From a virus: a stretch of 64,000 nt of DNA. The notes beneath the pieces are model-generated. The model saw nothing but the letters and a program-made list of their open reading frames with translations, was not told the origin of the DNA and did not search any database. The stretch is taken from positions 7,044 to 71,043 of the IMG/VR virus record IMGVR_UViG_3300045806_000013, one strand, 5' to 3'. Position numbers and translations under genes: made by a program. Below, piece after piece: positions 20,944 through 45,754 of this stretch; the stretch's first letter is position 1, and each line of letters starts with the position of its first letter.

Positions 20944-21477
20944 ATGAACAAAAGAGTGAAAAATTACATAAACAATGCCGATTTCTTGGCTGCATTGCTC
21001 GATTACAAGGAAAAAAAGAAGGTGAATTCTGACACTCCCATACCAAACTACATAGGGGAATGCTTCATGAAGATCGCAGATGGGTTGTCACACAAACCAA
21101 ATTTCATCAATTATCCTTGTAAGGAAGACATGATTGGTGATGGAATTGAGAACTGCTTGATGTATTTCCACAACTTCAACCCAGACAAATCAAATAATCC
21201 ATTTGCATATTTCACACAGATCGTGTATTATGCGTTTCTCCGTAGGATTCAGAAGGAAAAGAAGCAACTCTTTGCTAAGTACAAAGCTACGGAACAGATG
21301 GGTATCTTGGATGAATCTGAATTTTTGGACTTAGAAGGTGGCGGGTCTAGACAGTTCGAAATGTATGACAATATTGCGGAGTTCATCGAAACTTACGAAA
21401 TCGCACAGCAGAAACGTAAGGATGAAAAAAAGTCTAAGGTGAAGCTCAAGGGGATTGAAAACTTTTTTGAAGAGTAA
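20944..21477 (+). CDS. gp55: Late transcription sigma factor
   Basis: YINNADF, NYIGECF, NPFAYFTQ..AFLRRI. Confidence 0.95.
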   Translation: MNKRVKNYINNADFLAALLDYKEKKKVNSDTPIPNYIGECFMKIADGLSHKPNFINYPCKEDMIGDGIENCLMYFHNFNPDKSNNPFAYFTQIVYYAFLRRIQKEKKQLFAKYKATEQMGILDESEFLDLEGGGSRQFEMYDNIAEFIETYEIAQQKRKDEKKSKVKLKGIENFFEE

Positions 21478-31689: not shown

Positions 31690-31813
31690 TGCTACGTTAA
31701 AAGGCGTCCGTCTTCTGCAACGTTAATGTGGCGTGTCATTACACCGACAACACGATAGTTTGCCCTTGTATAAGGTAAGCAAGAATACACTCACACACTT
31801 AAAAGGAAATAAA

Positions 31814-32071
31814 ATGAAATCAGCACAAGTAAGCGCACCAGAAGTAACATTCAACAAAAATGGTTACGAAATCCGTACAGAAATTTTAGACATGGCAAGG
31901 TCACTCAATATTGATGACTACCATGCTAAGTTTCAAGGATGGGAAATGTCTAGTGTTAGGGATGAAAAGACTGGTCAAGTTGTAACGACTGTCGGTATGC
32001 CACCTTTCCCTGGATTGGATAAAATCTTGGAGACCGCAGAGCAGATGTATTCATTCGTGAATAAAAAGTAA
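31814..32071 (+). CDS. Hypothetical protein
   Basis: AAGGA RBS; NKNGYEIRTEIL. Confidence 0.6.
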   Translation: MKSAQVSAPEVTFNKNGYEIRTEILDMARSLNIDDYHAKFQGWEMSSVRDEKTGQVVTTVGMPPFPGLDKILETAEQMYSFVNKK

Positions 32072-32136: not shown

Positions 32137-32328
32137 ATGATGAAAAACGAACCAAAGCTTATCAAATATCAGAATCTGGCACAGCCCGATGTGGTGTTCT
32201 ATGCCTTTAGTAATTGGCACACTAAAGAGATAGATGGTGTAACCTTTCTTTCGGTGGTAAAGAATCCACCATCACACAATACGCAAATTACACATTGGAT
32301 ACGAAAAGATTCATTGAAGAGGGTATAA
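32137..32328 (+). CDS. Hypothetical protein
   Basis: ORF directly after the promoter. Confidence 0.5.
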   Translation: MMKNEPKLIKYQNLAQPDVVFYAFSNWHTKEIDGVTFLSVVKNPPSHNTQITHWIRKDSLKRV

Positions 32329-32338
32329 ATATATATTT

Positions 32339-32413
32339 CTGGCGTTCGTTCAACGGATAGGACAACTGCCTTCTAAGCAGTGAATAGGGGTTCGATTCCC
32401 TTACGCCGGACCA
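32339..32413 (+). tRNA. tRNA-Arg(TCT)
   Basis: Cloverleaf, loop CTTCTAA, encoded CCA. Confidence 0.92.
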
Positions 32414-32419
32414 ATACAT

Positions 32420-32494
32420 GCCACTCTAGCTCAATGGGAGAGCAGGGAACTCATAATTCCTTGGCACTTGGATCGAAACCAAGGAGTGGCACCA
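32420..32494 (+). tRNA. tRNA-Met/Ile2(CAT)
   Basis: Cloverleaf, loop CTCATAA, T-loop ATCGAAA, CCA. Confidence 0.88.
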
Positions 32495-32509: not shown

Positions 32510-33319
32510 ATGAAATCGTTTAAAGAATATTCAGAAGCTAAAAAGAAAGTTCCATTTTTGTCTTGGGATTCCGGATTTTCGGAAGTACGTGAAAAGAAAG
32601 TAACTGAAAATTGGCATGGTTTGCCACAAAAACAGGACTCCACCGGAAATAACAAATTTGGACAGAACTACGATGCCGGTTTTCATGATCACCCAGATGT
32701 AAAGCCTAGGAATGTATCGGATGATCATGCTAGGGCAATACTAAGGTATACGACAACATCCAGTAATGGAGAAAGAGGTCATGCGTCATCTGGAAATATG
32801 AATGCGTATCTTAGGAATAAAGCGGGGGACAAAACCCAACGAATACTGCATGACCATGATCCAAAAAAAGTACACGATTCTATAAAAACATTATCTTCTG
32901 CATTCACTAAAGAAAATACAAATAAGAAAGCTATTCATACATATGGTGGTGTTCCTGCACATATTGGCGAGAAGTTGGAGAAAAGTGAGAAGGGTTCTGA
33001 GCATCATTTAGCGGGATTTACTAGTACAAGTTCTGCGCAACGGACGGCCAAACACTTTGCACATACATATAATGGATTTGATCCGAAAAAAGTAAAGCAT
33101 GTTATACACTATCATGTTAAGCCTGGAGCAGGTCTATCCGCAGTGCACCACACAGACTATAATGAAAATGAAGTGATTTTACATCATGGGGCAAAATTGA
33201 AATATTCCCACACTACGGTGCATAAAGGAACTGAGGGTGAAGGTGACACTCATGTGCATCATGTGGTGGTTGGGTCTAAACATAAAAAGATTGAAGATTA
33301 TGGAGATTATGAAGCCTGA
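32510..33319 (+). CDS. ADP-ribosyltransferase-like protein (Alt/Mod-type), His-rich, CTS-like N-terminus
   Basis: YT...MNAYLR, FTSTS and ENEV motifs; starts MKSFKEYSE. Confidence 0.75.
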   Translation: MKSFKEYSEAKKKVPFLSWDSGFSEVREKKVTENWHGLPQKQDSTGNNKFGQNYDAGFHDHPDVKPRNVSDDHARAILRYTTTSSNGERGHASSGNMNAYLRNKAGDKTQRILHDHDPKKVHDSIKTLSSAFTKENTNKKAIHTYGGVPAHIGEKLEKSEKGSEHHLAGFTSTSSAQRTAKHFAHTYNGFDPKKVKHVIHYHVKPGAGLSAVHHTDYNENEVILHHGAKLKYSHTTVHKGTEGEGDTHVHHVVVGSKHKKIEDYGDYEA

Positions 33320-33731
33320 ATTGATTGAAGCGTACAAGACAACAACGGAAGCTTTTGCTAAATTATCAAGAGCTAGACGTCTGCAAGTTGGTGCTATTGT
33401 GGTGAAGGATGGTCGTATCATTTCCATAGGATATAATGGAACACCCGCAGGCTGGGATAATAATTGTGAAGATGTCCAAGAGGATGGGTCGTTGAAGACA
33501 AAGCCGGAGGTAGTTCATGCTGAAATGAATGCAATTGGTAAATTGGCTAAATCTAATGAATCCGGTGATGGTTCTACAATGTTTATCACACACGCGCCAT
33601 GTGTCGAATGTGCTAAGTTGATTGCAGTGAGTGGAATTAAAAAAGTGTATTTCGGCGCTGCATATAGATCAGATGATGGTGTTGTATTTTTACAACGATG
33701 TGGCGTGGAGGTTGACATGATCCCTAAATAG
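33309..33731 (+). CDS. cd: dCMP deaminase
   Basis: IGYNG, HAEMNAI, PCVEC. Confidence 0.92.
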   Translation: MKPELIEAYKTTTEAFAKLSRARRLQVGAIVVKDGRIISIGYNGTPAGWDNNCEDVQEDGSLKTKPEVVHAEMNAIGKLAKSNESGDGSTMFITHAPCVECAKLIAVSGIKKVYFGAAYRSDDGVVFLQRCGVEVDMIPK

Positions 33732-33740
33732 AGTTATAAT
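33712..33740 (+). promoter_or_regulatory. Sigma70 consensus promoter
   Basis: TTGACA-17bp-TATAAT. Confidence 0.8.
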
Positions 33741-33759: not shown

Positions 33760-34272
33760 ATGAATGTTAAGATTTATGGTTGTCCTGAAAAAGCATTCAA
33801 ACCCTATGTAGAAAGATCGGTGCAGTTTTTCGCAGATTTGTTAATATCTAAGAAGATGCAGGAGAATGTAGGAATAAAAATACGTTTCGTCAAGAAATTG
33901 GACGTTTATGGATATGCAGAAGTGGATGGTCATAATGCTAGCAGGAAGCCCAGAAAGTTTATTATAACTGTGCATTCTGGTTTGGGAGCAAGACCGACGA
34001 TAGAGACAATTGCACATGAAATGGTCCATGTCAGACAATTTGTGTATGGTCATATAAATGAGACCTTAGACAAATGGTATGACCTAAAAGAAGATTTCAA
34101 TGAGGTGGATTACTGGTTCAAACCATGGGAAATTGAAGCACATGGGCTAGAGGCTGGATTGATGACAAAGTTTGCAATCAGTGAAAATTTGTGGGAAATC
34201 TTTGGAGATTTTGTAAATCCAGCAGAAAAGATAAAAAAAGTTGAAATAAATTGGTTAAAGCCACCATTTTGA
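33760..34272 (+). CDS. Zincin-like metallopeptidase
   Basis: AHEMVHVRQ and PWEIEA. Confidence 0.75.
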   Translation: MNVKIYGCPEKAFKPYVERSVQFFADLLISKKMQENVGIKIRFVKKLDVYGYAEVDGHNASRKPRKFIITVHSGLGARPTIETIAHEMVHVRQFVYGHINETLDKWYDLKEDFNEVDYWFKPWEIEAHGLEAGLMTKFAISENLWEIFGDFVNPAEKIKKVEINWLKPPF

Positions 34273-34328
34273 TAAATAAGTTGTATATATAGTAGTAGAG
34301 TTTAATTTTTAACAGAAAAAAGAGTATA

Positions 34329-34448
34329 ATGTCCTTTAGTAAATCGTTTCCATCATTGCGCGAGTATCACACACCGTTAAACGGCAGTGATAATCAGCCA
34401 TGGGCGATTGGGGTTAAGGGGTTTGATGAAGGTGGTGGTTACTGTTAA
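34329..34448 (+). CDS. Putative 39-aa attenuator leader peptide
   Basis: MSFSKSFPSLREYHTPLNGSDNQPWAIGVKGFDEGGGYC; overlaps a sequence complementary to the downstream terminator. Confidence 0.6.
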   Translation: MSFSKSFPSLREYHTPLNGSDNQPWAIGVKGFDEGGGYC

Positions 34449-34471
34449 GACAGCACCAAAGCAAGATTCTC

Positions 34472-34508
34472 AAACCCCAGAAAGCGAAAGTTCTCTGGGG
34501 TTTTTTCT
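34472..34508 (+). terminator. Terminator (putative attenuator) upstream of the main tRNA array
   Basis: aaaccccaga...gaaa...tctgggg followed by tttttt. Confidence 0.85.
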
Positions 34509-34532: not shown

Positions 34533-34560
34533 TTGCAAACTTTGAAAATTGTGGTATAAT
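34533..34560 (+). promoter_or_regulatory. Sigma70 promoter with extended -10
   Basis: TTGCAA-16bp-TATAAT with TG upstream of the -10. Confidence 0.7.
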
Positions 34561-34569
34561 ACGTTTATC

Positions 34570-34616
34570 GATTCAGAAATCATCGAATTTCGAATCAAAA
34601 GTTCTTTAACAATTGA
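34570..34616 (+). promoter_or_regulatory. rrn-like hairpin plus boxA antitermination element
   Basis: gattcagaaat/atttcgaatc hairpin, then GTTCTTTAACAATT (rrn boxA is TGCTCTTTAACAATT). Confidence 0.6.
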
Positions 34617-34794
34617 GTGTAGTTTTCTGATCCCTTGATGTAGCATACATATGCCACTTGTCGGGATGACATCGTGTGTCAAGGGATCATAGTTAAACAC
34701 ATCCATAACGCAACTCGGTACATGGATACCTGATCATGTGGCGCTGAAAACATGTGGGTGGCAAAGCCATGCTCGGTGTGTTTAACTATGATGT

Positions 34795-34868
34795 TCGGGA
34801 TTTGTGTAGTGGTAGCACACCAGACTTTGACTCTGATAGTATAAGTTCGATTCTTATATCCCGTACCA
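34795..34868 (+). tRNA. tRNA-Gln(TTG)
   Basis: Cloverleaf, loop CTTTGAC, CCA. Confidence 0.9.
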
Positions 34869-34875
34869 GAAAAAT

Positions 34876-34963
34876 GGATCATAGATGCTCTGGGAGCTAA
34901 CTGGCCTTGAAAACCGGTCCACTGTTGATAGCGGTGACAGTTCGATTCTGTTGTGATCCTCCC
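34876..34963 (+). tRNA. tRNA-Ser(TGA)
   Basis: Loop CTTGAAA, long variable arm; ends CCC rather than CCA. Confidence 0.75.
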
Positions 34964-35015
34964 TTGAGTCGAAGTCAAGACTCGAACTATTGTAAATATA
35001 GTATAGGAGATTAAT

Positions 35016-35711
35016 ATGTACTATACAATTTATAAAATAGTAAATCAAATCGATGGCAAGGTCTACATAGGTAGCCATAAGACCAAAGATTTGAATGACA
35101 AATATATGGGGTCGGGTAAATATCTGAAACGCGCCCAAGAGAAGTGTGGAATTGTTAATTTCACCAAAGAGATACTTTTCACATATGATAATGCACAGGA
35201 AATGTATGCAAAAGAAGCAGAGTTGGTGAATGAAGATTTCTTATCAACTGAAAACACATACAATTTGAAGGTTGGTGGTTCTGGTGGTTGGGATTTTATC
35301 AATAATGATAAAGATCATTATACCCACTCGTCGGAACATTCATATTACATGAAAAGACATTATAAAGAAAAAATGAAAGACACTTCATACAGAAATAAAG
35401 TATGTGAAAATATTTCAAAAGGTTTAAAAAATAAAGCAAACAATGATCCTGTATACCTAGAGAAAAAAAGAAAACATATTAAAAATATGAGTTTCGCAGG
35501 CAAACATCATAAACAGGAGAGTAAAATAAAAATGTCACTTTCTATGCAGGGTAAACAATCAGGTGAAAAAAATTCACAATATGGTTCCTTGTGGATAACT
35601 AATGGAACCGAAAATAAAAAGATAAGTAAAAATGATGTTATACCAAATGGTTGGTATAGAGGAAGAAAAATAAAGGTGCAGTCCCATAATGGTATTGGAG
35701 TTGATTGCTAA
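35016..35711 (+). CDS. GIY-YIG (Seg-like) homing endonuclease
   Basis: TIYKIVN...VYIGSH, YMGSG, YNLKVGG, NUMOD3-like GKHH. Confidence 0.9.
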   Translation: MYYTIYKIVNQIDGKVYIGSHKTKDLNDKYMGSGKYLKRAQEKCGIVNFTKEILFTYDNAQEMYAKEAELVNEDFLSTENTYNLKVGGSGGWDFINNDKDHYTHSSEHSYYMKRHYKEKMKDTSYRNKVCENISKGLKNKANNDPVYLEKKRKHIKNMSFAGKHHKQESKIKMSLSMQGKQSGEKNSQYGSLWITNGTENKKISKNDVIPNGWYRGRKIKVQSHNGIGVDC

Positions 35712-35764
35712 TCAATCGGTTGTAGTAATACGGCTTCGGGGTTCAAGTCCCCGCTGCACCACCA
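35675..35764 (+). tRNA. tRNA-Ser(GCT)
   Basis: Loop TTGCTAA, long variable arm, CCA; overlaps the 3' end of the endonuclease gene. Confidence 0.88.
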
Positions 35765-35888
35765 ATCAAACCCGGACCGGGAAACCGGTTAATGGGAGTA
35801 CGTGAGTTACTAAGGTGTCCTAGGCACTGAATGTGGCGGAATTCTCACAAAGCTATATGAGTCGTCCTGAGATATAGCACCTATAAAT

Positions 35889-35978
35889 GGAATATGCGGT
35901 CATGTTGGTACTGACGCCTGTTTGGAAAACAGGAGACTGCCTTGTGTGGTCGGGGTTCAATTCCTCCATATTCCTCCA
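35889..35978 (+). tRNA. tRNA-Ser(GGA)
   Basis: Loop TTGGAAA, long variable arm, CCA. Confidence 0.85.
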
Positions 35979-35986
35979 AGTTTTAT

Positions 35987-36064
35987 GCCCTTATGGACAA
36001 ATTGGTAAAGTCGCTTCTCTCAAAAGGAAGAATTCTCTCGGCTCGAATCCGAGTAAGGGCACCA
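35987..36064 (+). tRNA. tRNA-Leu(CAA), short variable loop
   Basis: Loop CTCAAAA, CCA. Confidence 0.85.
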
Positions 36065-36071
36065 GTTTTAT

Positions 36072-36149
36072 GTGCAAGTACCAGAGCGGTCTAATGGCAA
36101 TGTCTGCAAAACATTTGATTCGTGAGTTCAAATCTCACCTTGCACTCCA
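36072..36149 (+). tRNA. tRNA-Cys(GCA)
   Basis: Loop CTGCAAA, U73, CCA. Confidence 0.9.
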
Positions 36150-36180
36150 GTTATTTTTGTGTTATAATTAGATTTTAAAT

Positions 36181-36255
36181 ACTGCTGTCGTCTAGTGGCT
36201 AGGACATCTGGTTTTCATCCAGAGAAAGACGGATCGAAACCGTTCAGCAGTACCA
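36181..36255 (+). tRNA. tRNA-Glu(TTC)
   Basis: Loop TTTTCAT, CCA. Confidence 0.88.
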
Positions 36256-36259
36256 ATAT

Positions 36260-36333
36260 GGGGGTATAACTTAGTGGTAAAGTAGTAGGCTTTTAACCTA
36301 TTAACCAGAGTTCAATTCTCTGTGCCCCTACCA
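36260..36333 (+). tRNA. tRNA-Lys(TTT)
   Basis: Loop CTTTTAA, CCA. Confidence 0.9.
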
Positions 36334-36467
36334 AGAGCAGCGACCATGATTCACAATGGTCAGTATGAGCGAGTGAGGTATCTAGATAATCCTCACAGCA
36401 AGCAATAGTACGACAAACTATGTGATTAAGGTTTTATGGTGTCCTTTAAAAAACCGTACAGATTTAT

Positions 36468-36542
36468 GGTGCTGTCATATAATGGATATTATCGCGGATT
36501 GTCTATCCGTAGATGGGAGTTCGATTCTCCCCAGCATCGCCA
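36468..36542 (+). tRNA. tRNA-Asp(GTC)
   Basis: Loop TTGTCTA, G73, CCA. Confidence 0.9.
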
Positions 36543-36551
36543 AAGTTTTAT

Positions 36552-36630
36552 TCCGTGAAATTCAAGCAAGGTGCAAGGACTTGACTGTTAATCAATGACT
36601 AGGTGGGTTCGATTCCCTCACACGGAGCCA
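36552..36630 (+). tRNA. tRNA-Asn(GTT), copy 1, atypical D arm
   Basis: Loop CTGTTAA, GCCA end. Confidence 0.8.
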
Positions 36631-36644
36631 GTTTGTTATTTTAT

Positions 36645-36720
36645 TCTCCTATAGCTCAGTTGGTAGAGCATTTGACTGTTAATCAAAATGTCCCTCGTTC
36701 GAGCCGAGGTAGGGGAGCCA
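36645..36720 (+). tRNA. tRNA-Asn(GTT), copy 2
   Basis: Canonical cloverleaf, loop CTGTTAA, GCCA. Confidence 0.92.
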
Positions 36721-36727
36721 GTTTTAT

Positions 36728-36798
36728 TCTTGTGTAATGTAATAGTAGCATAGGGCCGTATACACCCAGTGAAAGTGCAACTCTTTCTGCAAGAGCCA
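36728..36798 (+). ncRNA. Degenerate tRNA-like RNA
   Basis: Acceptor stem and GCCA, D-like and T-like arms, non-canonical anticodon and T loops. Confidence 0.55.
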
Positions 36799-36803
36799 GT
36801 TTT

Positions 36804-36863
36804 AGGATTCATTCAGCAAAATCAAAAAATTCAACTTATATTTGAAAAAAAGCGAATCCTGTT
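36804..36863 (+). ncRNA. Y-RNA-like motif copy 1 with anticodon-stem-loop cargo (TAT)
   Basis: aggattc/gaatcct stem, ATTCAGCAA, 3' CTGTT; ttcaa-CTTATAT-ttgaa hairpin. Confidence 0.65.
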
Positions 36864-36872
36864 GTATTTTAT

Positions 36873-36946
36873 CTCCGTGTGGCGTAATGGTAGCGTCCGT
36901 GATTTGGGGTCATGGGGCGAAGGTTCGATTCCTTCTACGGAGACCA
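36873..36946 (+). tRNA. tRNA-Pro(TGG)
   Basis: Loop TTTGGGG, CCA. Confidence 0.9.
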
Positions 36947-36957
36947 GTTAGTTTAAT

Positions 36958-37041
36958 GGACGTTTGACCGAGAGGCCGAAGGTAGCGGATTGTAAACCCG
37001 CTCGTAACTGCACGTTGGTTCGAATCCAACAGCGTCCACCA
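36958..37041 (+). tRNA. tRNA-Tyr(GTA)
   Basis: Loop TTGTAAA, variable arm, CCA. Confidence 0.9.
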
Positions 37042-37109
37042 TGAAAGCGCAGTTTGTAGGATTCTGCCACTGAGTAGTAAAACTCGATAAATAATACCTA
37101 CACATATTT

Positions 37110-37184
37110 GGGCTGTTAGTATAACTGGGAATACAGTGGCGTTGCAAGCCTCAGTCGGGAGTTCGATCCTCCCACGGTCCACCA
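37110..37184 (+). tRNA. tRNA-Ala(TGC)
   Basis: G3:U70 pair, loop GTTGCAA, CCA. Confidence 0.88.
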
Positions 37185-37228
37185 TTATTGTTTATAAATA
37201 TAAGACTTACATTTATAGGATTTTTCGT

Positions 37229-37525
37229 ATGCTGACATTCAAATCATTCATCAGAGAATCTGTTCAATAAGAACATGAATTCAATGATAGTTCTGCACCG
37301 ATGCAGGCTGGAATGCCTAAAACTCTCCATGATTTTTTGTGGCATCTATCTGCACCAAATCCAGATGGTCGCGGTGTTGTAAGTGGGTTGCAGTTGAAGG
37401 GTGTTACAAATGAAAGTGCGGGCAATTTCGCCAATCATGTGGATGAACATGGTACAATCTGGATTCATGATCACAAACATGGTCAAGGTCCGCATAAGAC
37501 AATACCGATTCACGCTGCAAAATAA
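37229..37525 (+). pseudogene. Small His-rich CTS-bearing gene with an in-frame TAA at codon 14
   Basis: TATAAATA at 37193, AGGA RBS, MLTFKSFIRESVQ*EHEF... in frame with the 37301 ORF. Confidence 0.6.
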
Positions 37526-37532
37526 GATAGAT

Positions 37533-37607
37533 GGTTCTATGACGTAGATGGATGCGTATCGGTTTCATAAGCCGAAGAGAGTGGATCGATACCACTTAGA
37601 ACCACCA
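37533..37607 (+). tRNA. tRNA-Met/Ile2(CAT)
   Basis: Loop TTCATAA, CCA. Confidence 0.85.
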
Positions 37608-37615
37608 TAGTTAAT

Positions 37616-37692
37616 CCGCCCGTAGCACAACTGGAGAATGTACCGTCCTACGAAGTCGAGTGGTGGGAGTTCGAATCTCTCCGGGTGGACCA
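37616..37692 (+). tRNA. tRNA-Arg(ACG)
   Basis: Loop CTACGAA, imperfect anticodon stem, CCA. Confidence 0.8.
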
Positions 37693-37707
37693 ATTTAGGA
37701 GTATAAT

Positions 37708-37893
37708 ATGTCAGATGGTGGTAAAGGTTCCACGCCCAGACCATTTTCAGTTTCCAACGCCGAGTATGCTGCCCGATGGGATACGATATTCGGAAAGGAA
37801 GTAGAAAATGCTGAAGTTAAGAAAGAAATAGACGATCTGTTGTATGGAGTCAACAAAGACCTAAAAAGGATCATTGACCTCAATAAACAGTGA
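37708..37893 (+). CDS. Hypothetical protein
   Basis: AGGAG RBS; MSDGGKGS.PRP N-terminus. Confidence 0.65.
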   Translation: MSDGGKGSTPRPFSVSNAEYAARWDTIFGKEVENAEVKKEIDDLLYGVNKDLKRIIDLNKQ

Positions 37894-38087
37894 TATAATG
37901 CCATATGTGTTTTAGCGCACCAAACTTTACAAAATAAGTGACGAGTTGGGTTCGGTAGCACACAGAGTTTTGAGTCATTTTTGCGTTTTTTGTCCTACAT
38001 AATAATGTGAGATATGGAAATATTTCATAGATATCGGCATCTAGATACCGAGTGTAATTTCCATATAAAAAACAAAAAGGAAATATT

Positions 38088-38711
38088 ATGGCAGACGTAT
38101 TAACACAATCAGACTTATTTAATTTATTTCGTGATAACGCAGATATTCGGCTGGAAGATGCTGAACATTCCTCAGATATCCGTAGGGAAACTGCGGCAGG
38201 CGTGGCAGACATTCGTAGGGAAACTGCGGAACACACAGCAGATATTCGTAGAGAAGATTCTGAAGGTGTATCGAGGATTCTTCTAGAACAAGCCAAGGGT
38301 CTTGACAATATCAATTCTGATGTTAAGGCTACTGGTTGGAGTGTTGCAGATAGAGTTGGGGCAGAGTCAGCTAAGATTATTAATCAACAAACGCAATTCT
38401 ATATTGCTGCTGCTGCTGAAAGTGCAAGAAATGCATTGGAAGCTGCGAAGGTTTCGTATAACATTCTTGAGGGTCAAGCTCTTATTAATAGGACGACAAC
38501 CCATGAAGCAATGGAAACCCGTAAGCTGATCAATGACCTTCAGGTACAAGACCTAAATCGTATGTTGATTGAAAAGAATTCAGTCTTGATGGAGGAACGT
38601 GTAGAAGGTCGTTCACTATTAAGGGCCATTGAATCTAATCAATTCGCTACTTTACAAGGTAACATTAATTCACTACATGCACAGATTCATGCTGGCACTG
38701 CTGTGGCTTAA
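38088..38711 (+). CDS. Coiled-coil protein with 11-residue DIRRE repeats
   Basis: Four D-I-R-[RL]-E repeats spaced 11 aa apart; AAGGA RBS. Confidence 0.65.
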   Translation: MADVLTQSDLFNLFRDNADIRLEDAEHSSDIRRETAAGVADIRRETAEHTADIRREDSEGVSRILLEQAKGLDNINSDVKATGWSVADRVGAESAKIINQQTQFYIAAAAESARNALEAAKVSYNILEGQALINRTTTHEAMETRKLINDLQVQDLNRMLIEKNSVLMEERVEGRSLLRAIESNQFATLQGNINSLHAQIHAGTAVA

Positions 38712-38764
38712 TTTGATAGTTGGAATCTGGTTGATCACAAGTTGACCAGATTTTTTTAAGATTT

Positions 38765-38853
38765 AGAATACATTCAGCAAAAATTATTATAGGTTCGATT
38801 CCTAAATTATGCTTTTAGCATGACGCCAATGGTGGCAAATATTGTATTCTGTT
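38765..38853 (+). ncRNA. Y-RNA-like motif copy 2 with T-arm, hairpin and D-arm cargo (YrlA-like order)
   Basis: agaatac/gtattct stem; tagg-TTCGATT-ccta, atgc-tttta-gcat, gcc-aatggt-ggc. Confidence 0.65.
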
Positions 38854-38859
38854 GTTTAC

Positions 38860-38893
38860 ACCCGGATAATTAAATGGTATAATAATCGGCTGA
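38860..38893 (+). pseudogene. 5' half remnant of tRNA-Ile, truncated in the anticodon loop
   Basis: acccgga-taattaaatggtataat-a-atcgg-ctga parallels the 5' half of the tRNA at 39658. Confidence 0.7.
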
Positions 38894-38919
38894 CCTAAAT
38901 AAGTATTTTAAAGATTTAT

Positions 38920-39672
38920 ATGCCATTGTATTGTTGCTGTATTGAATGTAGAAGTGTTGTGGCAACTAGCCAGATATCCAGACACTATAAGAGTAAATTA
39001 TGTCTAAGTGGAGGTAAATACGTACCAATGACGTGCTGCCCCCATTGTAATCTCCGAAAAGAGGATATAAATTCAGATTTTGCGAATCATGTGAAATTTT
39101 GCGCGGCAAATGAGTCGGTGCCAAATTATAAAAATGGAAAAGGTTCAAAATATTTTACAGGTAGATTAGCATGGAATAAAGGCAAAACTAAAGAAAATGA
39201 TGTAAGAGTTGCTAAATCTGCAAATACGCTGATGGTAGGCATAAAGCCGAATCATGGTCAATGTAGTGATCCCATTGAAGAGACGGAAAGACGATTGAAA
39301 CTTTCAAAAATTGCAAAACTTAATGGGTTTGGTGGATATAGACAAAATGCAGGTATAAGTAAAAAGTTTAGAGTTTTAGATTCATATGGAAAAGAGGTTG
39401 TGTTACAGAGTAGCTATGAACTTAAATGTTCAGAGATATTGAATTCATCCAACATAAAGTGGATTAGACCAACCGCATTGAAATACGATAACAAAAATTA
39501 TTTTGCCGATTTCTATCTTCCTGAATATGACGTGTGGCTAGACCCGAAGAATGCATATAAAGCCACTCTAGACAGTGATAAAATCAAAAAAGTAATAGCA
39601 CAAAATAATATAAGATTGTATGTTTTATTAGAACATCAATTAACAAAAGAATATATTGCCGGGATAATATAG
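38920..39672 (+). CDS. Putative homing endonuclease (Zn finger, NUMOD, PD-(D/E)xK)
   Basis: CPHC, AWNKG, SSYE...YFADFYLP...LDPK. Confidence 0.75.
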   Translation: MPLYCCCIECRSVVATSQISRHYKSKLCLSGGKYVPMTCCPHCNLRKEDINSDFANHVKFCAANESVPNYKNGKGSKYFTGRLAWNKGKTKENDVRVAKSANTLMVGIKPNHGQCSDPIEETERRLKLSKIAKLNGFGGYRQNAGISKKFRVLDSYGKEVVLQSSYELKCSEILNSSNIKWIRPTALKYDNKNYFADFYLPEYDVWLDPKNAYKATLDSDKIKKVIAQNNIRLYVLLEHQLTKEYIAGII

Positions 39673-39732
39673 TGATCTGTATAATCGCCTGATAAGCGAT
39701 CAGTGATGGTTTGATTCCATCTCTCGGTACCA
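39658..39732 (+). tRNA. tRNA-Ile(GAT)
   Basis: Loop CTGATAA, CCA; overlaps the endonuclease stop codon. Confidence 0.8.
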
Positions 39733-39740
39733 AAAAATAT

Positions 39741-39815
39741 AAGTCGCAGGTGTAAATGGCTGCATCTTAGTCTCCAAAACTAAAGGACACGGATCGTTAC
39801 CGTGGCGACTTGCCA
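39741..39815 (+). tRNA. tRNA-Trp(CCA)
   Basis: Loop CTCCAAA, GCCA end. Confidence 0.85.
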
Positions 39816-39839
39816 GTTTTTTATAAGGAGTGAAGTGAT

Positions 39840-40337
39840 ATGTCAGATTTTAATATCGATGAAGTAAAGGCATTTATTGTTGCCCAAAGTGAATCTACCA
39901 AAGTATATCTTGGTGCAGATTCAGAAAGACTACGCATTGATGGTGTCTGGTATGTTGACTACTCGTTGGCTGTAATTGTCCACATTGATGGGTGCCATGG
40001 TTGTAAGATTTTTGGATATGTTCAACGTGAATTGGATTATGATCATAAGAAATCTAAACCATCTATGCGTCTGATGTCGGAGGTATATAAAGTTTCTGAG
40101 TTATTCCAGAATATGCAGGATGTTCTGGAGGATAGACACGTTGAAATCCATATTGACATAAATCCAGATGAACGACATGGCTCGTCTTGTGTGGTGCAAC
40201 AAGCTATTGGATATATTAAGGGGACGTGTAACATGAAACCAATGGTGAAACCTAATGCTCCCGCAGCAAGCTTCGCAAGTGATAGGTTAAAAAGAATCTT
40301 ACATGAGCAGGACACTATTGAGAAAGTGACAACTTGA
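39840..40337 (+). CDS. RNase H-like YkuK/DUF458 family protein
   Basis: VYLGADS, RLMSEV, EIHIDIN, AASFASD. Confidence 0.75.
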   Translation: MSDFNIDEVKAFIVAQSESTKVYLGADSERLRIDGVWYVDYSLAVIVHIDGCHGCKIFGYVQRELDYDHKKSKPSMRLMSEVYKVSELFQNMQDVLEDRHVEIHIDINPDERHGSSCVVQQAIGYIKGTCNMKPMVKPNAPAASFASDRLKRILHEQDTIEKVTT

Positions 40338-40341
40338 ACCG

Positions 40342-40382
40342 CCTCCTATTGTGCAGATGTATAAATACTGTATAATAGGAGG
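40342..40382 (+). promoter_or_regulatory. RBS-sequestering hairpin with a late promoter in its loop
   Basis: cctcctattgtgcag-atg-TATAAATA-ctgtataataggagg, 15-bp stem. Confidence 0.8.
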
Positions 40383-40388
40383 TTGTAT

Positions 40389-40965
40389 ATGAACTACGTA
40401 AAGATATATAACGATTTAATAAACACTGCAGCCGGGAACGAATATGATGAGTACACTGAAAAACATCATATAATTCCAAAATGTCTGGGAGGTTCTAATA
40501 AGAAAGAGAATTTAATTGTCCTTTCATATAGAGAGCATTTCATATGCCATTGGTTATTGTGTAAGATATATCCGGATAAAAAAATATGGAATTGAGAATT
40601 TTGTAAAAGAGATTTTATTTGTTTATGATACACCTGAACCTATGTTTTTAAAAGAAGCAGAATTAGTAAATATAAATTTTCTAGCATGTGAAAATGTCTA
40701 TAATATTAAGATTGGTGGTTTCGGTGGGTTTGACTTTATAAACAAGTCAAGAACTACTGAAAGCAGGATAAAATCTGGAAAAATGGGCAGATTAAAGGGT
40801 GGTAAATCTTTTAGTAAAGATTATAATCCAAATATCGGATCAATCTATATTACAAATTCAATTTCTGATAAAAGAATAAAATCTGGAGAACCAATACCGG
40901 ATGGTTGGACTAGAGGTCGAACTAAAGGAGGTTGGAAAGCCAAAAAAATTTTGGAGAATAGTTAA
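40389..40965 (+). pseudogene. Chimeric or degraded homing endonuclease: HNH N-terminus joined out of frame to a GIY-YIG C-terminus
   Basis: EKHHIIPKC...REHFICHWLL (40389-40595), then KKYGIENF...YNIKIGG in another frame. Confidence 0.7.
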
Positions 40966-41164
40966 ATATTTTCCTCTAAGTTTTGTTATGATGTAGATAC
41001 TATGAAATCGACTGTAGGCATATGGTCAGAAAGGTCATTCGAGGCACTTTCGGAGCGTCACCAAGTAATAGTTATAACTACTTACCACTAACCCAGTGCA
41101 CTTAATTATATGGGTAAAATGGTTCCGAATGAGTGTGGCGGAACGATCATGACAAATTTATAAT

Positions 41165-41256
41165 GGGAGTAAGAATTGGTATTCAGAGAGGTCTTATAAG
41201 CCTTTTAGCGCCAGATTAGCGTTCTTGAGAAGGTTCGATTCCTTCTACTCCTACCA
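41165..41256 (+). tRNA. Atypical tRNA with TAT anticodon and long variable arm
   Basis: gggagta/tactcct acceptor, 4-bp/4-nt D arm, gaggt-CTTATAA-gcctt, canonical T arm, ACCA. Confidence 0.75.
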
Positions 41257-41306
41257 AATATCGCCCTGACATATGGCGTACAATGAGATAAGTAGTATGT
41301 TACCTT

Positions 41307-41380
41307 GCCTTTGTAGTATAGTGATATTACTCACCCTTGGTACGGGTGAAACAAGAGTTTGATTCTCTTCGAAGGCACCA
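41307..41380 (+). tRNA. tRNA-Thr(GGT)
   Basis: Loop TTGGTAC, CCA. Confidence 0.85.
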
Positions 41381-41459
41381 TTTATAAACACATTATTTAA
41401 TAAGGTGTAACCCGCGACACAACCGTATGGTAGTGGGTAGTGTGTTTTTAAATGTTTAT

Positions 41460-41535
41460 GCGTCTTTGGCAGTGATGGTTCATGCAGTGGTCTGAAAAGC
41501 CACCTATGTTGGTTCGATCCCAACAGGACGCACCA
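41460..41535 (+). tRNA. tRNA-Phe(GAA)
   Basis: Loop CTGAAAA, CCA. Confidence 0.88.
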
Positions 41536-41641
41536 AGTTAAGCAGAGCCTGACTGAAACGGGCATGGGAGAAGCTGGATGCTGGAAATGTATCAGGGGTT
41601 CGATTCCCACAGTCTCTTATTTCAGTCTGCTTATTAAATTA

Positions 41642-41715
41642 GCCCTTTTCGTATAGTGGCATTACATCTGTTTCGTAATCAGATTACGGCAGTTCAATTC
41701 TGTCAAAGGGCACCA
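41642..41715 (+). tRNA. tRNA-Thr(CGT)
   Basis: Loop TTCGTAA, CCA. Confidence 0.88.
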
Positions 41716-41719
41716 AAGG

Positions 41720-41917
41720 ATGAAAAAATATTCACTAAAGCTATTGACTTCGGGTAGGCAGGTATGGTACAATAACCGTCTACACACGATAGAACACAAC
41801 ATCGTTAGTGACGGTAAGTTATATGTGAGATTAGTTGATAATCCTAATTTGATACCAGAAGAAAATGTTGATTGTGAGTATACTGATATAGTTTTAGAAA
41901 GAATAACGGGGATATAG
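41720..41917 (+). CDS. Hypothetical protein
   Basis: ORF between tRNAs; stop codon lies inside the next tRNA. Confidence 0.5.
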   Translation: MKKYSLKLLTSGRQVWYNNRLHTIEHNIVSDGKLYVRLVDNPNLIPEENVDCEYTDIVLERITGI

Positions 41918-41985
41918 CAAAATTTGGTATTGCCACTGACTCTTAATCAGTAAAAAAGTGGATTCGATTTCCACTGTCCCCACCA
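41908..41985 (+). tRNA. tRNA-Lys(CTT)
   Basis: Loop CTCTTAA, CCA. Confidence 0.85.
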
Positions 41986-41991
41986 AGTTAA

Positions 41992-42161
41992 GGTTAGTTG
42001 CAAATGAACACTAGTAGTTACCTTTATACCCTGAACAAGTATATTGGAGTGAATGTAAGTAGTTGTGCAGACTGTTCAACCAAAGAGGTGTTAAACCCGT
42101 AGATTAAGTTCCTACGCTCTCGCTCAATGGATGTTGTAAATTCAAATTTACACTAACCACC
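41992..42161 (+). ncRNA. Putative ~170-nt structured RNA
   Basis: 5' ggttagt...aaatgaa pairs with 3' ttcaaattt...actaacc; ends in ACC. Confidence 0.45.
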
Positions 42162-42167
42162 GTTTTT

Positions 42168-42236
42168 AGGATAGGTTCTGCAAAACCAAAAGATCAACCA
42201 TAATGTTCTTGTCTTGATCGACAAAACTATCCTGTT
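42168..42236 (+). ncRNA. Y-RNA-like motif copy 3
   Basis: aggatag/ctatcct stem, GTTCTGCAA, 3' CTGTT; internal ttgtc/gacaa hairpin. Confidence 0.65.
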
Positions 42237-42243
42237 GTTTAAA

Positions 42244-42320
42244 GCCCTGGTGACGGAATAGGCATACGTGTTGGTCTTAGAAACCAAATTTTGGGGGTTC
42301 AAGTCCCCCCTAGGGCACCA
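42244..42320 (+). tRNA. tRNA-Leu(TAG), short variable loop
   Basis: Loop CTTAGAA, CCA. Confidence 0.88.
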
Positions 42321-42324
42321 ATTT

Positions 42325-42399
42325 ACCGCTATAGTTCAATGGATAGAATAGGGGTTTCCTAAACCTCGGGTGTAAGTTCGATTCTTACTGGTGGTACCA
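42325..42399 (+). tRNA. tRNA-Arg(CCT)
   Basis: Loop TTCCTAA, CCA. Confidence 0.9.
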
Positions 42400-42529
42400 A
42401 GTTTTGTAGTTAAGTCGGTTAGACTTTAGTAAAGGCGATGCGGAATGATCCCAAGGGTCACGTTAAATATCGAAGCGCATCTTAATGAAAATGTGTGCAG
42501 CCTACTACAAATTATTTTTAGAAAAAGCA

Positions 42530-42558
42530 TTGACAGACTACACTCAATTTGTTATAAT
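42530..42558 (+). promoter_or_regulatory. Sigma70 consensus promoter for the Y-like RNA/TROVE unit
   Basis: TTGACA-17bp-TATAAT with extended -10 TG. Confidence 0.85.
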
Positions 42559-42638
42559 AGCGACTTCTTAATTGATAAAGCAACAATTACCAAGTGAGGC
42601 TATCATGTAGTTAAAGAAAAGAATTTGTAGAGTTTTTA

Positions 42639-42920
42639 AGGATGAGTACAGCAGCATTAAATATACTGACTAAAAAAGGTGCCTGATACGGAGACCCCGA
42701 GTAATCGGTTATTTAAAGGGCTAGGTTGATAGTTTCCATAGTATGGATTGTGCCGAAACACCTATCTAGTACACATTACATGTGTTATGGTAATGAATTA
42801 TCTTTGCTGATAGATCAAGACATCTATCTGAGTTACAGTGAATCATACCCATCCGCAAGCTGGGGTCTACACTGAGGTTAGATAAACCAGTTCAATATAG
42901 TAACGATTGACCATCCTGTT
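42639..42920 (+). ncRNA. Y-RNA-like motif copy 4 (large, ~280 nt)
   Basis: aggatg/catcct stem, GTACAGCA, 3' TTGACCATCCTGTT; internal agacccc/ggggtct and gatagat/atctatc helices. Confidence 0.6.
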
Positions 42921-42936
42921 ATTTTTTTAGAGATTT

Positions 42937-43003
42937 AGAATCGGTTCAGCAAAAAAAAGCTTAATAGGCACCAAACTTGTAACTTGGAAAAAACGATTCT
43001 GTT
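42937..43003 (+). ncRNA. Y-RNA-like motif copy 5 with anticodon-stem-loop cargo (TGT)
   Basis: agaatcg/cgattct stem, GTTCAGCAA; ccaaa-CTTGTAA-cttgg. Confidence 0.65.
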
Positions 43004-43009
43004 GTATTG

Positions 43010-43121
43010 AGGTTAAGTTCCGCAAACATAAATTTATTACAATCCAAACAGCAAGTCCGGTTCGATTCCGGTTTATAGTGTAATGGTAGCACAGCAGTAA
43101 GTAAAAAAAGTTTAACCTGTT
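43010..43121 (+). ncRNA. Y-RNA-like motif copy 6 with T-arm then D-arm cargo
   Basis: aggttaa/ttaacct stem, GTTCCGCAA; ccgg-TTCGATT-ccgg then tagtgtaatggtagcac. Confidence 0.65.
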
Positions 43122-43143
43122 ATTTAATGAAAGAGAGTATATT

Positions 43144-44574
43144 ATGAACACATTTGTAAATGCCGTAGCAAACCAATCTACCCGTACCACCAATGGTATG
43201 AAGGCCCGTAAGTCCACTGCTAATGCAGTTGTTGACTTGTTCTACAATGCCGGTGCGTCCCGTGGTAAGGATATTGTTCCTGCTTTCACCGCAGCATTGG
43301 CAGAAAACCGCGAATTGGCACTTCGTGTTGTCGCATGGTTGCGTGATGTTCGTGGTGGTGCTGGTGAACGTAAGCTTTTCCGTGATATCTTGGTATATCT
43401 GGAAAAGAGTGATCCGGATGCTGCTAAGGCTCTGGTTGCTAAGGTGCCGGAAGTTGGTCGTTGGGATGACTTGTTCATCTTCAAGACTGATGCGCTGAAG
43501 AATGTTGCATACACTTTGTTGGGTGATGCTTTGCGTGAAAAGAATGGTCTTGCTGCAAAGTGGACTCCACGTCAAGGCCCAGTGGCCGCTGAAGTTCGTA
43601 AGTTCTTCGGTATGTCACCAAAGTTTTACCGTAAGTCTCTGGTCGAAATGACTAATGTGGTTGAACAAAATATGTGTGCAAAGGAATGGGATGAAATTAA
43701 TTTCTCACACGTTCCATCGGTTGCAGCTTCGCGTTACAAGAAGGCATTTAACCGTAACACCCCAGCTTATGCGGCTTATGTTGCATCGTTGGTGAAGGGT
43801 GGAGACCTAAAGGTTAAGGTTAATGCTGGTGCAGTGTATCCATATGATGTCCTAAAGGGTCAAATTGGTGGTTACAAGAGGGTTTGGGATAAGACTGAAT
43901 TGGATTTGATCCAAAAGCAATGGGAAGCTCTTCCTGACTATGTTGGTGAAGCAAGCATTCTGCCTTTGGTTGATTCGTCTGGTTCTATGTCATGTCCTGT
44001 TGGTGGATATGGTTCTAAGAGTGGTATGTCTTGTATGGATGTTGCAGTTTCGTTGGGGCTGTATCTCGCTGACAAGAACAAGGGTAAGTTCAAGGATACT
44101 TTCTTGACCTTCTCGAAGTCGCCAAGGTTGGTAACGCTCAATGGCAATATCAATCAAAAGATTAACCAAATGTGTACCGGTGAAGTGGCTAACACTAACC
44201 TGAATGCAGCATTGGATAAGATTTTGAAAGTAGCCAAGAATGGAAATGTTCCGACCGAAGAAATGCCAGCAATGCTGTTGATTCTTTCAGACATGCAATT
44301 CGACGGTACTGTCGATGGTCGTGATGACAGTGCAATGGAAATGATTGCACGTAAGTATAAGGACGCAGGTTACACCCTTCCAAAGGTTGTGTTCTGGAAC
44401 TTGAATGCTGCATATGGTAACGCACCAGTGAAGTTTGACAAGTCTGGTACTGCACTTGTATCTGGATTCTCTCCAGCAATCATTAAGCCTTTATTGGCGA
44501 ATGATTTGGACACTTTCACCCCAGAAAGTGTTATGTTGAAGACCATCATGGTTGACCGTTACAAAGTCCTGTAA
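43144..44574 (+). CDS. TROVE/Ro60-like protein with vWA domain (DUF2828-like)
   Basis: RDVRGGAGER helical N-domain, AAKWTPR, MIDAS VDSSGSM, LSDMQFD, VFWNL, VSGFSP. Confidence 0.8.
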   Translation: MNTFVNAVANQSTRTTNGMKARKSTANAVVDLFYNAGASRGKDIVPAFTAALAENRELALRVVAWLRDVRGGAGERKLFRDILVYLEKSDPDAAKALVAKVPEVGRWDDLFIFKTDALKNVAYTLLGDALREKNGLAAKWTPRQGPVAAEVRKFFGMSPKFYRKSLVEMTNVVEQNMCAKEWDEINFSHVPSVAASRYKKAFNRNTPAYAAYVASLVKGGDLKVKVNAGAVYPYDVLKGQIGGYKRVWDKTELDLIQKQWEALPDYVGEASILPLVDSSGSMSCPVGGYGSKSGMSCMDVAVSLGLYLADKNKGKFKDTFLTFSKSPRLVTLNGNINQKINQMCTGEVANTNLNAALDKILKVAKNGNVPTEEMPAMLLILSDMQFDGTVDGRDDSAMEMIARKYKDAGYTLPKVVFWNLNAAYGNAPVKFDKSGTALVSGFSPAIIKPLLANDLDTFTPESVMLKTIMVDRYKVL

Positions 44575-44580
44575 AGGCAA

Positions 44581-44607
44581 TTGGGGATTCGAAAGAGTCC
44601 TCATTTT
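44581..44607 (+). terminator. Terminator after the TROVE-like gene
   Basis: tggggattc-gaaa-gagtcctca followed by tttt. Confidence 0.65.
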
Positions 44608-44720
44608 GAAGGGTATTGTATTGTTGTTAACTCAACTTAACACAATAAAGATGCATCTGTGGTATAATACACTTCAAAATGATATAAATAAACACATTAG
44701 AATATTTTTCTGGAGTGTCT

Positions 44721-45221
44721 ATGGTTAGGAAAATAAAAGTCAGTGATGAACAAATAATTGAAGCATCATTAAATTCAAACTCAGCTACACAAGCCTCTGT
44801 AATGTTGGGTATAAAATATGATACTTATAAAGTTCATGCAACCAGGTTGGGTGTTTTCAAAACAAACAAATCTGGTATTGGTATAAATAAACTAAAAAAA
44901 GACGGTCGAGGTAAAATTAGTTTGACTGAAATACTGGAAGGAAAACATCCAAGTTATCAGACAAACAAATTAAGATTAAGATTATTATCCGAAAAAATTA
45001 AAGAGAGTAAATGTGAAATTTGTGGTATAAATGATTGGTTAGGAAAAAGAATTGCGTTAGAGCTTGACCATATTGACGGTAAGAACTATAATCACATATA
45101 TAGTAATTTGAGGATTGTGTGTCCAAATTGTCATGCACAGACAGACACATATAGAGGAAAGAATAAAAGCGGTAGTGGTGGAACGGTATACACACCGGGC
45201 TTAAAACCCGACGCACTATAA
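44721..45221 (+). CDS. HNH homing endonuclease
   Basis: CEIC, LELDHIDG, NLRIVCPNCH; TATAAATA at 44683. Confidence 0.88.
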   Translation: MVRKIKVSDEQIIEASLNSNSATQASVMLGIKYDTYKVHATRLGVFKTNKSGIGINKLKKDGRGKISLTEILEGKHPSYQTNKLRLRLLSEKIKESKCEICGINDWLGKRIALELDHIDGKNYNHIYSNLRIVCPNCHAQTDTYRGKNKSGSGGTVYTPGLKPDAL

Positions 45222-45255
45222 ATGCATATGGGTTCGAATCCCATCTACCGCACCA
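45169..45255 (+). tRNA. tRNA-Leu(TAA)
   Basis: Loop CTTAAAA, long variable arm, CCA; overlaps the HNH 3' end. Confidence 0.9.
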
Positions 45256-45279
45256 AATGGATATATAAATAAGAAATTA

Positions 45280-45353
45280 GCCCCATTAGTATAATGGCAT
45301 TATGACGGTTTTGTAATCCGTTGGTGGCAGTTCGATTCTGTCATGGGGCACCA
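45280..45353 (+). tRNA. tRNA-Thr(TGT)
   Basis: Loop TTTGTAA, CCA. Confidence 0.9.
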
Positions 45354-45358
45354 ATTAT

Positions 45359-45415
45359 AGCGGGTAGTGAAGCCAACAATCCAGTCTCATAAGCTCGGAT
45401 CAACGGGGGTGCGAC
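45359..45415 (+). pseudogene. Truncated tRNA-Met(CAT), missing the 3' T arm and acceptor strand
   Basis: agcgggt...ccagt-CTCATAA-gctcgg...gggggtgcgac, then unrelated sequence. Confidence 0.55.
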
Positions 45416-45464
45416 ATGTAAATCTAACTGTGTTGGAATTTTTGGTGCTGATCCAATCACTAGA

Positions 45465-45695
45465 TTGAAATATACTATTATTGGTCGCGCAGCAGCTTTA
45501 TCTGAAGAATCCAGGGAGAAAAGAAAAAGTACATTTAAAACTATATCACATCAAAAGGGTACGATAAATAGTCAATTCGGATCAATGTGGATAACCAATG
45601 GAGTCAATAATAGGAAAATAAAAAAAGATGATACAATCCCTGATGGATGGTACATCGGACGGTATATAAATAAGAACAATGCGGGATTAGTTTAA
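45465..45695 (+). pseudogene. C-terminal remnant of a Seg-like endonuclease
   Basis: NSQFGSMWITNG...IPDGWYIGR matches the C-terminus of 35016; no catalytic domain. Confidence 0.65.
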
Positions 45696-45754
45696 TGGTA
45701 AAATGTCTTCCTTCCAAGTAGATGTCATCGGTTCAATTCCGATATCCCGCTCCA
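45681..45754 (+). tRNA. tRNA-Gly(TCC)
   Basis: Loop CTTCCAA, U73, CCA. Confidence 0.9.

Follow-up and report, generated by a model that had tools for sequence, protein, structure and literature searches.

Attenuators that act through a leader peptide are known in detail from the trp, his and thr operons, and the thrL and ilv leaders are multivalent. In E. coli, the chromosomal pheM-pheST system uses a leader peptide to control a synthetase via aminoacyl-tRNA supply, for one amino acid. The ribosome-mediated mechanism of leader-peptide attenuation has been set out in PMC11857589 and the pheL attenuator in PMC3082878, and T-box riboswitches, which sense tRNA charging, switch between a terminator and an antiterminator (PMC11477304). 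Why phages carry large tRNA sets, whether for codon bias, to replace degraded host tRNA or as counter-defence, is an open question. Attenuation of tRNA genes is not described in the accessible portions of PMC2965389 and PMC10976474, and our literature search, outside of which lie most subscription journals and supplements, returned no published description of tRNA genes under leader-peptide attenuation, nor of a leader that contains all amino acids. Here we describe a putative element of this kind ahead of a phage tRNA array.

The locus and its relatives

The window analysed here is a 64 kb stretch out of a 71-kb contig from an uncultured peat phage. It encodes T4-like phage genes (portal, major head, tail sheath, DNA polymerase, clamp, clamp loader and late sigma factor), and the stretch is present in public permafrost and peat metagenome runs, with matching contigs from four runs, mostly at an identity of at least 99%. 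ARAGORN predicts 27 tRNAs in the window, 25 of them (at default settings) downstream of the leader/terminator element, in an array headed by tRNA-Gln(TTG) and interspersed with protein genes (34795–45754, + strand). A relaxed threshold adds tRNA-Ser(TGA) (34876–34962) and tRNA-Trp(CCA) (39741–39815), and the Ser(TGA) gene has a weak score on the tRNA-Sec model (35 bits; gathering score 47). The contig, possibly incomplete, yielded neither a His nor a Val tRNA.

The array also holds genes for a 476-aa DUF2828/DUF7788 protein (43144–44574; RNA-binding protein by PHROG) and an RNase H-like protein (39840–40337), and homing/HNH endonuclease-like genes lie among the tRNAs at 35016–35711, 38920–39672 (assigned by look only) and 44721–45221. 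The stop codon of the 35016–35711 gene falls inside tRNA-Ser(GCT). Outside the array, an Arg(TCT)-Met(CAT) tRNA pair (32339–32494) directly follows a TATAAATA late motif at 32324. Between this pair and a dCMP deaminase gene lies an ADP-ribosyltransferase-like gene (32510–33319; Pfam ADPrib_exo_Tox, E 1.9e-10; RNA polymerase ADP-ribosylase by PHROG), whose product has an N-terminus resembling the T4 internal-protein capsid-targeting sequence.

Upstream of the element is a gene for a 170-aa HExxH metallopeptidase-like protein (33760–34272, + strand; phrog_10499, E 2.9e-24; weak Peptidase_M91). Relatives of the locus were collected using this gene as anchor, blind to the leader sequence. As a lone query against viral contigs it gave zero matches, and an alignment was required; the alignment query identified 519 viral loci with a relative, the best 80 of which were analysed. 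In 36 of these 80 loci the downstream tRNAs begin with Gln(TTG), like those of the window. Leaders were called by a rule that ignores amino acids (the strongest terminator before tRNA-Gln, with an ORF ending 35–85 nt upstream; widened once after the first run), and a short ORF plus terminator was found in all 36. Among the other 44 loci, 9 are without a downstream tRNA and 35 have a different first tRNA; of the latter, 19 are without a terminator, 2 are without an ORF and 14 have ORFs with 10–17 amino-acid types, none reaching 18. Because these 44 loci are mostly without the element, the all-amino-acid leader is not universal in these phages.

A second, pattern-anchored set comprised 90 loci plus the window (56 distinct; 4 truncated ones left out) and gave 43 distinct peptides, of which 30 have 19 types, 11 have 18, one has 17 and one has 16. 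These 43 peptides form a closer subfamily with a common core motif. Since the pattern itself fixes about 10 residues, this set is partly circular and serves as support only. Among 50,697 cultured-phage records there were no relatives of the leader (one tblastn match, E 6, at chance level), and the DNA matches, among the best 20 of 378, cover the tRNA part only. An alternative anchor, the gene at 31775–32068, gave 80 loci, of which only 2 had the HExxH gene and tRNAs, neither with this leader, and it was rejected.

Amino-acid completeness of the leader

The leader ORF (34329–34448, + strand) has 39 codons and encodes all 20 amino acids. Recomputation returned exactly the peptide of the original prediction, as well as its 19 types within the first 29 codons and its 27 distinct codons among the first 30. 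Most amino acids occur once or twice, and Met only as initiator. The chance of all 20 amino acids in 39 random codons is 0.4–0.7%, and that of the three codon features jointly is 0.006–0.026%. However, 5 of the 179 ATG ORFs of 30–50 aa in the window have at least 19 types, so a single copy alone is not decisive. At the level of sequence, it is conservation across relatives that settles that the observation is real.

The Gln-headed loci encode 30 distinct leader peptides of 31–43 aa, which share 15–44% identity with the window peptide and differ by free indels. Nevertheless, all 19 non-Met amino acids are present in 18 of these peptides, 18 types in 10 and 17 types in 2. Under a phage codon null, 0.05 of the 30 peptides would be expected to have 19 types and 0.66 at least 18, against 18 and 28 observed, and the other two reading frames reach at least 18 types in none of 60 cases. 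Column-shuffled chimeras have 16.91±0.18 types compared with 18.55 observed (0 of 2000 shuffles reach the observed value). As the chimeras score lower, completeness is kept by compensation, in which an amino acid lost at one position is regained at another, and is not only inherited. These comparisons show selection for amino-acid completeness across the leader family.

Residue conservation is 0.38 in the leader versus 0.56 in the neighbouring gene, whereas codon conservation at identical residues is 0.77 versus 0.50; for the window copy against the other copies, codons at identical residues give 0.64 versus 0.51. This codon conservation could also stem from RNA structure. Across the 36 Gln-headed loci the start codons are kept, with SD-like or leaderless starts, and the window copy has a weak SD. 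The leader peptide matched no PHROGs or Pfam family, and the best match in a protein atlas search (0.78) is within chance.

The predicted switch and its promoters

Downstream of the leader is an intrinsic terminator (34472–34508, + strand; stem 34472–34485/34490–34503, with the U tract running to 34508). It folds as claimed by the original prediction (z −4.05; 0 of 200 shuffles), although a consensus terminator scan did not list it. A competing hairpin is predicted from an antiterminator 5′ strand (segment 2; 34418–34430, + strand), which covers leader codons 30–34, and a 3′ strand (segment 3; 34467–34478, + strand), which overlaps the base of the terminator 5′ arm. The earlier observation that 34418–34426 is the exact reverse complement of 34470–34478 was reproduced. 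In the predicted fold, inner helices (34432–34462, + strand) place the stop codon (34446–34448) in the apical loop, and folding of 34410–34490 gives z −2.45 (2 of 200 shuffles). The leader by itself has no folding advantage over shuffles (z 0.22).

The pairing is conserved. Pairing between the last 15 leader codons and the terminator 5′ arm is stronger than in codon shuffles for 29 of 31 copies (p≤0.05); for segments 2 and 3 of the window copy itself the result is borderline (p=0.053). The copies are related, so the p-values in these comparisons overstate independence. Cognate tails and arms pair with a mean of −18.8 kcal/mol versus −14.7 kcal/mol for non-cognate ones (0 of 5000 permutations), and in a fixed register the Watson-Crick fraction is 0.72 versus 0.58±0.02, in a count where one of 31 copies is without an anchor and about 5 anchors are visibly wrong. 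No column-based count of covariation is given, since segment 2 was wrongly placed in the MAFFT alignment of the family. The G-run of segment 2 occurs in all three codon positions across copies, which argues that it is fixed by RNA pairing rather than by the peptide. A 1:2 anti-antiterminator or pause helix is significant in only 6 of 31 copies (p=0.40 in the window copy), and a conserved helix of this kind is not established. Thus, sequence comparison shows the anatomy, the conservation and the helix co-variation of a putative terminator/antiterminator switch. Leader, near-complete amino-acid set, competing antiterminator and position before the array are conserved and co-vary in related phages, and the non-conservation that would have counted against the original prediction was not found.

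To estimate which codons could be sensed, we folded the transcript at equilibrium as far as the terminator loop, placing a ribosome footprint on each codon in turn, and modelled 29 of 31 copies; the other 2 showed no drop at all. The window copy switches at codon 28–30 in this folding model, with 17–18 of the 19 types upstream (p 0.010/0.003), and its modelled sensing zone is approximately codons 2–27/29. Cys39, plus Val29 under a longer footprint, lies beyond the switch point. On average the family has 16.1–16.9 types before the modelled switch point versus 12.8–13.1 expected. Val and Gly are often outside the modelled zone, and Val lies beyond the switch point in 15–19 of 29 copies, yet is mostly retained. 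The idea that the leader senses all amino acids therefore stands only in part: a near-complete set is kept in relatives, but Met is present only as initiator and the modelled zone of the window copy holds 17–18 of 19 types. With a ribosome at the stop codon, segment 2 is blocked in 22 of 29 modelled copies and free in 7 and in the window copy, in an equilibrium model that ignores steric and kinetic effects. Since segment 2 is left free in these cases, such blocking must be assumed, and we infer that a ribosome occupying the loop of the hairpin would prevent pairing, either sterically or through timing.

There are two candidate sources of the leader transcript. The motif ATAAATA (34272–34278, + strand) resembles a T4 late promoter, with one mismatch from TATAAATA (consensus taken from PMC10132071), and is a candidate P1 of the leader in this subclade. 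It occurs 27 times on the + strand and twice on the − strand, a late sigma factor gene is present at 20944–21477, and a late-promoter-like motif without a sigma70 match lies upstream of the leader in 8 of 43 close relatives. The other candidate is the sigma70-type promoter of the HExxH gene (33712–33740, + strand; 12/12), and the scan that missed the terminator at 34472 listed none between this promoter and the leader. Directly before the window leader no sigma70 promoter was found (best 6/12), while 21 of 31 copies have one within 75 nt upstream, many of them leaderless. The leader transcript may start at the 34272 late-promoter-like site or at the 33712 sigma70 promoter.

Between the terminator and the first tRNA we confirmed the separate promoter-like site of sigma70 type, P2 (34533–34560, + strand; 10/12), 33 nt past the terminator, and 28 of 31 copies have an equivalent site. 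With P2 in this position, read-through can only add to expression, and the array does not depend on the switch in the window or in these copies. Thus, the original description of the leader as gating the array was too strong, and boosting is the better word. Three Gln-headed loci (L129, L156 and L171) have a leader and terminator but no promoter between terminator and first tRNA, so their tRNAs need read-through, and in these the attenuator would act as a gate after all. A second leader subfamily is seen in six of the 44 loci that are not Gln-headed (L108, L112, L121, L126, L163 and L172), with leaders of 25–30 aa, 15–17 types and a leaderless start; their terminator is 10–22 nt ahead of the first tRNA, with no space for a promoter, and they are candidates for true gating.

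Past P2 lies a boxA-like Nus-factor site (34601–34612, + strand), an exact match to the consensus GYTCTTTAANA (10.1101/091223; the available part of PMC4807359 gives no boxA consensus). The exact GYTCTTTAAMAA occurs nowhere else in the 64 kb window, and 28 of 31 copies have a boxA-like site in the interval from terminator to first tRNA. This suggests that the phage tRNA operon recruits host Nus factors via the putative boxA. Two stem-closed RNA structures are predicted between boxA and tRNA-Gln (34628–34689 and 34686–34792, + strand; z −2.30 and −3.69), with no Rfam match and no similar stretch in 263 loci. A pattern search with the 34628–34689 hairpin returned 13 loci, 12 of them without any tRNA, and was dropped as chance. 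One locus (L099) has a different long stem-closed insert at this position. An RNA-library contig (34467–34715) spans the termination point and reaches about 41 letters upstream of it, a weak hint of read-through, and another starts at 34536. The leader ORF is covered by none of the aligned RNA contigs, which counts neither for nor against the switch; contigs do not reveal transcript ends or strand, and DNA may be present in the libraries.

A probable demand-driven boost of phage tRNAs

We consider it likely that the element is an attenuator coupled to the ribosome, in which most aminoacyl-tRNAs are probed a single time each and slow decoding allows additional transcription to read through into the tRNA array. 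The parts of this proposal that we infer are translation of the leader, its coupling to transcription, the promoter that feeds it, what triggers it physiologically, and how large the effect is and in which direction it goes. Host RNA polymerase would start at the upstream sigma70 promoter or the late-promoter-like site and transcribe the leader, with a ribosome trailing. Fast decoding of approximately codons 2–28 would bring the ribosome to cover or split segment 2 before segment 3 could pair; with segment 2 occupied, the terminator would form and transcription would stop at about 34508. Under a shortage of any of 17–18 amino acids or their tRNAs, the ribosome would lag and segment 2 would pair with segment 3, and without a terminator the polymerase would pass P2 and boxA and reach the tRNA genes. 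The basal level would come from P2, and the attenuator would be a demand-driven booster.

The same anatomy of leader, terminator and antiterminator would be expected if the attenuator read general ribosome speed or availability (coupling, antibiotics or ribosome shortage) rather than tRNA supply, with a mixed composition that only avoids bias for a single amino acid. The amino acids often found past the modelled sensing zone, notably Val and Gly, fit such a reading, but a neutral ORF would be expected to have about 15 types, not 18–19, without compensatory turnover, and the regulated genes are tRNAs; we regard it as unlikely. That the product acts in trans, as the peptide itself or as the terminated leader RNA, has a precedent in Sinorhizobium trpL, where leader peptides and attenuator RNAs are trans-acting (PMC7298713, PMC6614838), and the core motif of the 43-peptide subfamily would agree with it. 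However, family identity is as low as 15–44% with free indels, conservation is higher for codons than for residues, the peptide matches no PHROGs or Pfam family, and selection for a protein function would not favour having all 20 residue types, which makes this quite improbable.

It seems very improbable that the terminator does no more than close the upstream operon and keep P2 insulated from it, with ORF and pairing as by-products. P2 and boxA do provide the array with its own start, chance alone gives roughly one small ORF with 20 types per window, and the 2:3 duplex of the window copy is borderline. This explanation is nevertheless largely refuted by conservation: the ORF is found in 36 of 36 loci, 28 of 30 peptides are near-complete and only in a single frame, the helix shows co-variation, and P2 is missing from 3 copies. 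Those copies also bear on the case in which read-through is negative, with upstream transcription occluding P2 so that slow translation lowers tRNA output. Although P2 sits in the read-through path in 28 of 31 copies, no tRNA source other than read-through is visible where P2 is missing, and read-through transcripts would themselves contain boxA and the tRNAs; we give occlusion very little credence.

Returning to the demand-driven booster, we tentatively extend it to a possibility that we hold to be doubtful: the leader might be an all-codon sentinel that detects the loss of almost any host tRNA, including anticodon-nuclease cleavage by anti-phage defence, and answers with up-regulated phage tRNAs. 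In this subclade, rewiring would have placed it under the phage late promoter, with early supply constitutive (P2, boxA) and late supply on demand. If true, this would be an inducible, specificity-blind counter-defence built from RNA and a 39-codon ORF. What makes it plausible is that phage tRNAs can rescue infection from tRNA-cutting defence, as the T5 tRNA-Lys counters PARIS (PMC11464382). The accessible text of this T5/PARIS work contains no 'attenuat' or 'tRNA array' wording and describes no regulatory sensor. Starvation, or tRNA drain or overload in late infection, would fit the leader equally well as triggers.

Conservation of a feedback element ahead of the array implies that decoding is monitored by the phage, which then provides tRNA according to need. 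The question of why phages carry tRNA sets becomes testable with a 240-nt reporter, as the shortages that trigger it would reveal the purpose of the tRNAs, and the element could be a compact general reporter of aminoacyl-tRNA stress. Leader-peptide attenuation would be extended from sensors of one amino acid to a near-universal sensor acting on tRNA genes.

As in the trpL, hisL, pheL, thrL and ilv attenuators, there is a short leader ORF with an antiterminator strand in its end and an overlap with an intrinsic terminator, and as in amino-acid-operon attenuators the downstream genes would relieve the sensed shortage. In contrast to these, the control codons are approximately one per amino acid instead of runs of one to three amino acids, the targets are phage tRNA genes with a second promoter past the terminator, and there is no clear anti-antiterminator or pause hairpin. 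Because all 20 amino acids are present, most of them once or twice, we treat the element as a variant and not as a member of the trp/his type. T-boxes bind tRNA directly, with one specificity each and no leader translation, unlike the phage leader, and a T-box riboswitch was rejected here, with no Rfam T-box match at the gathering score or at E≤1. The putative boxA is like that of rRNA operon boxA/Nus antitermination, with an exact GYTCTTTAANA shortly after a promoter and ahead of untranslated RNA genes, but it lies in a phage tRNA operon and is paired with an upstream attenuator. As in pheM-pheST, a component of the translation apparatus would be under leader-peptide control by aminoacyl-tRNA supply; there a single amino acid and a chromosomal synthetase gene are concerned, whereas here the targets would be phage tRNA genes and the signal nearly all amino acids.
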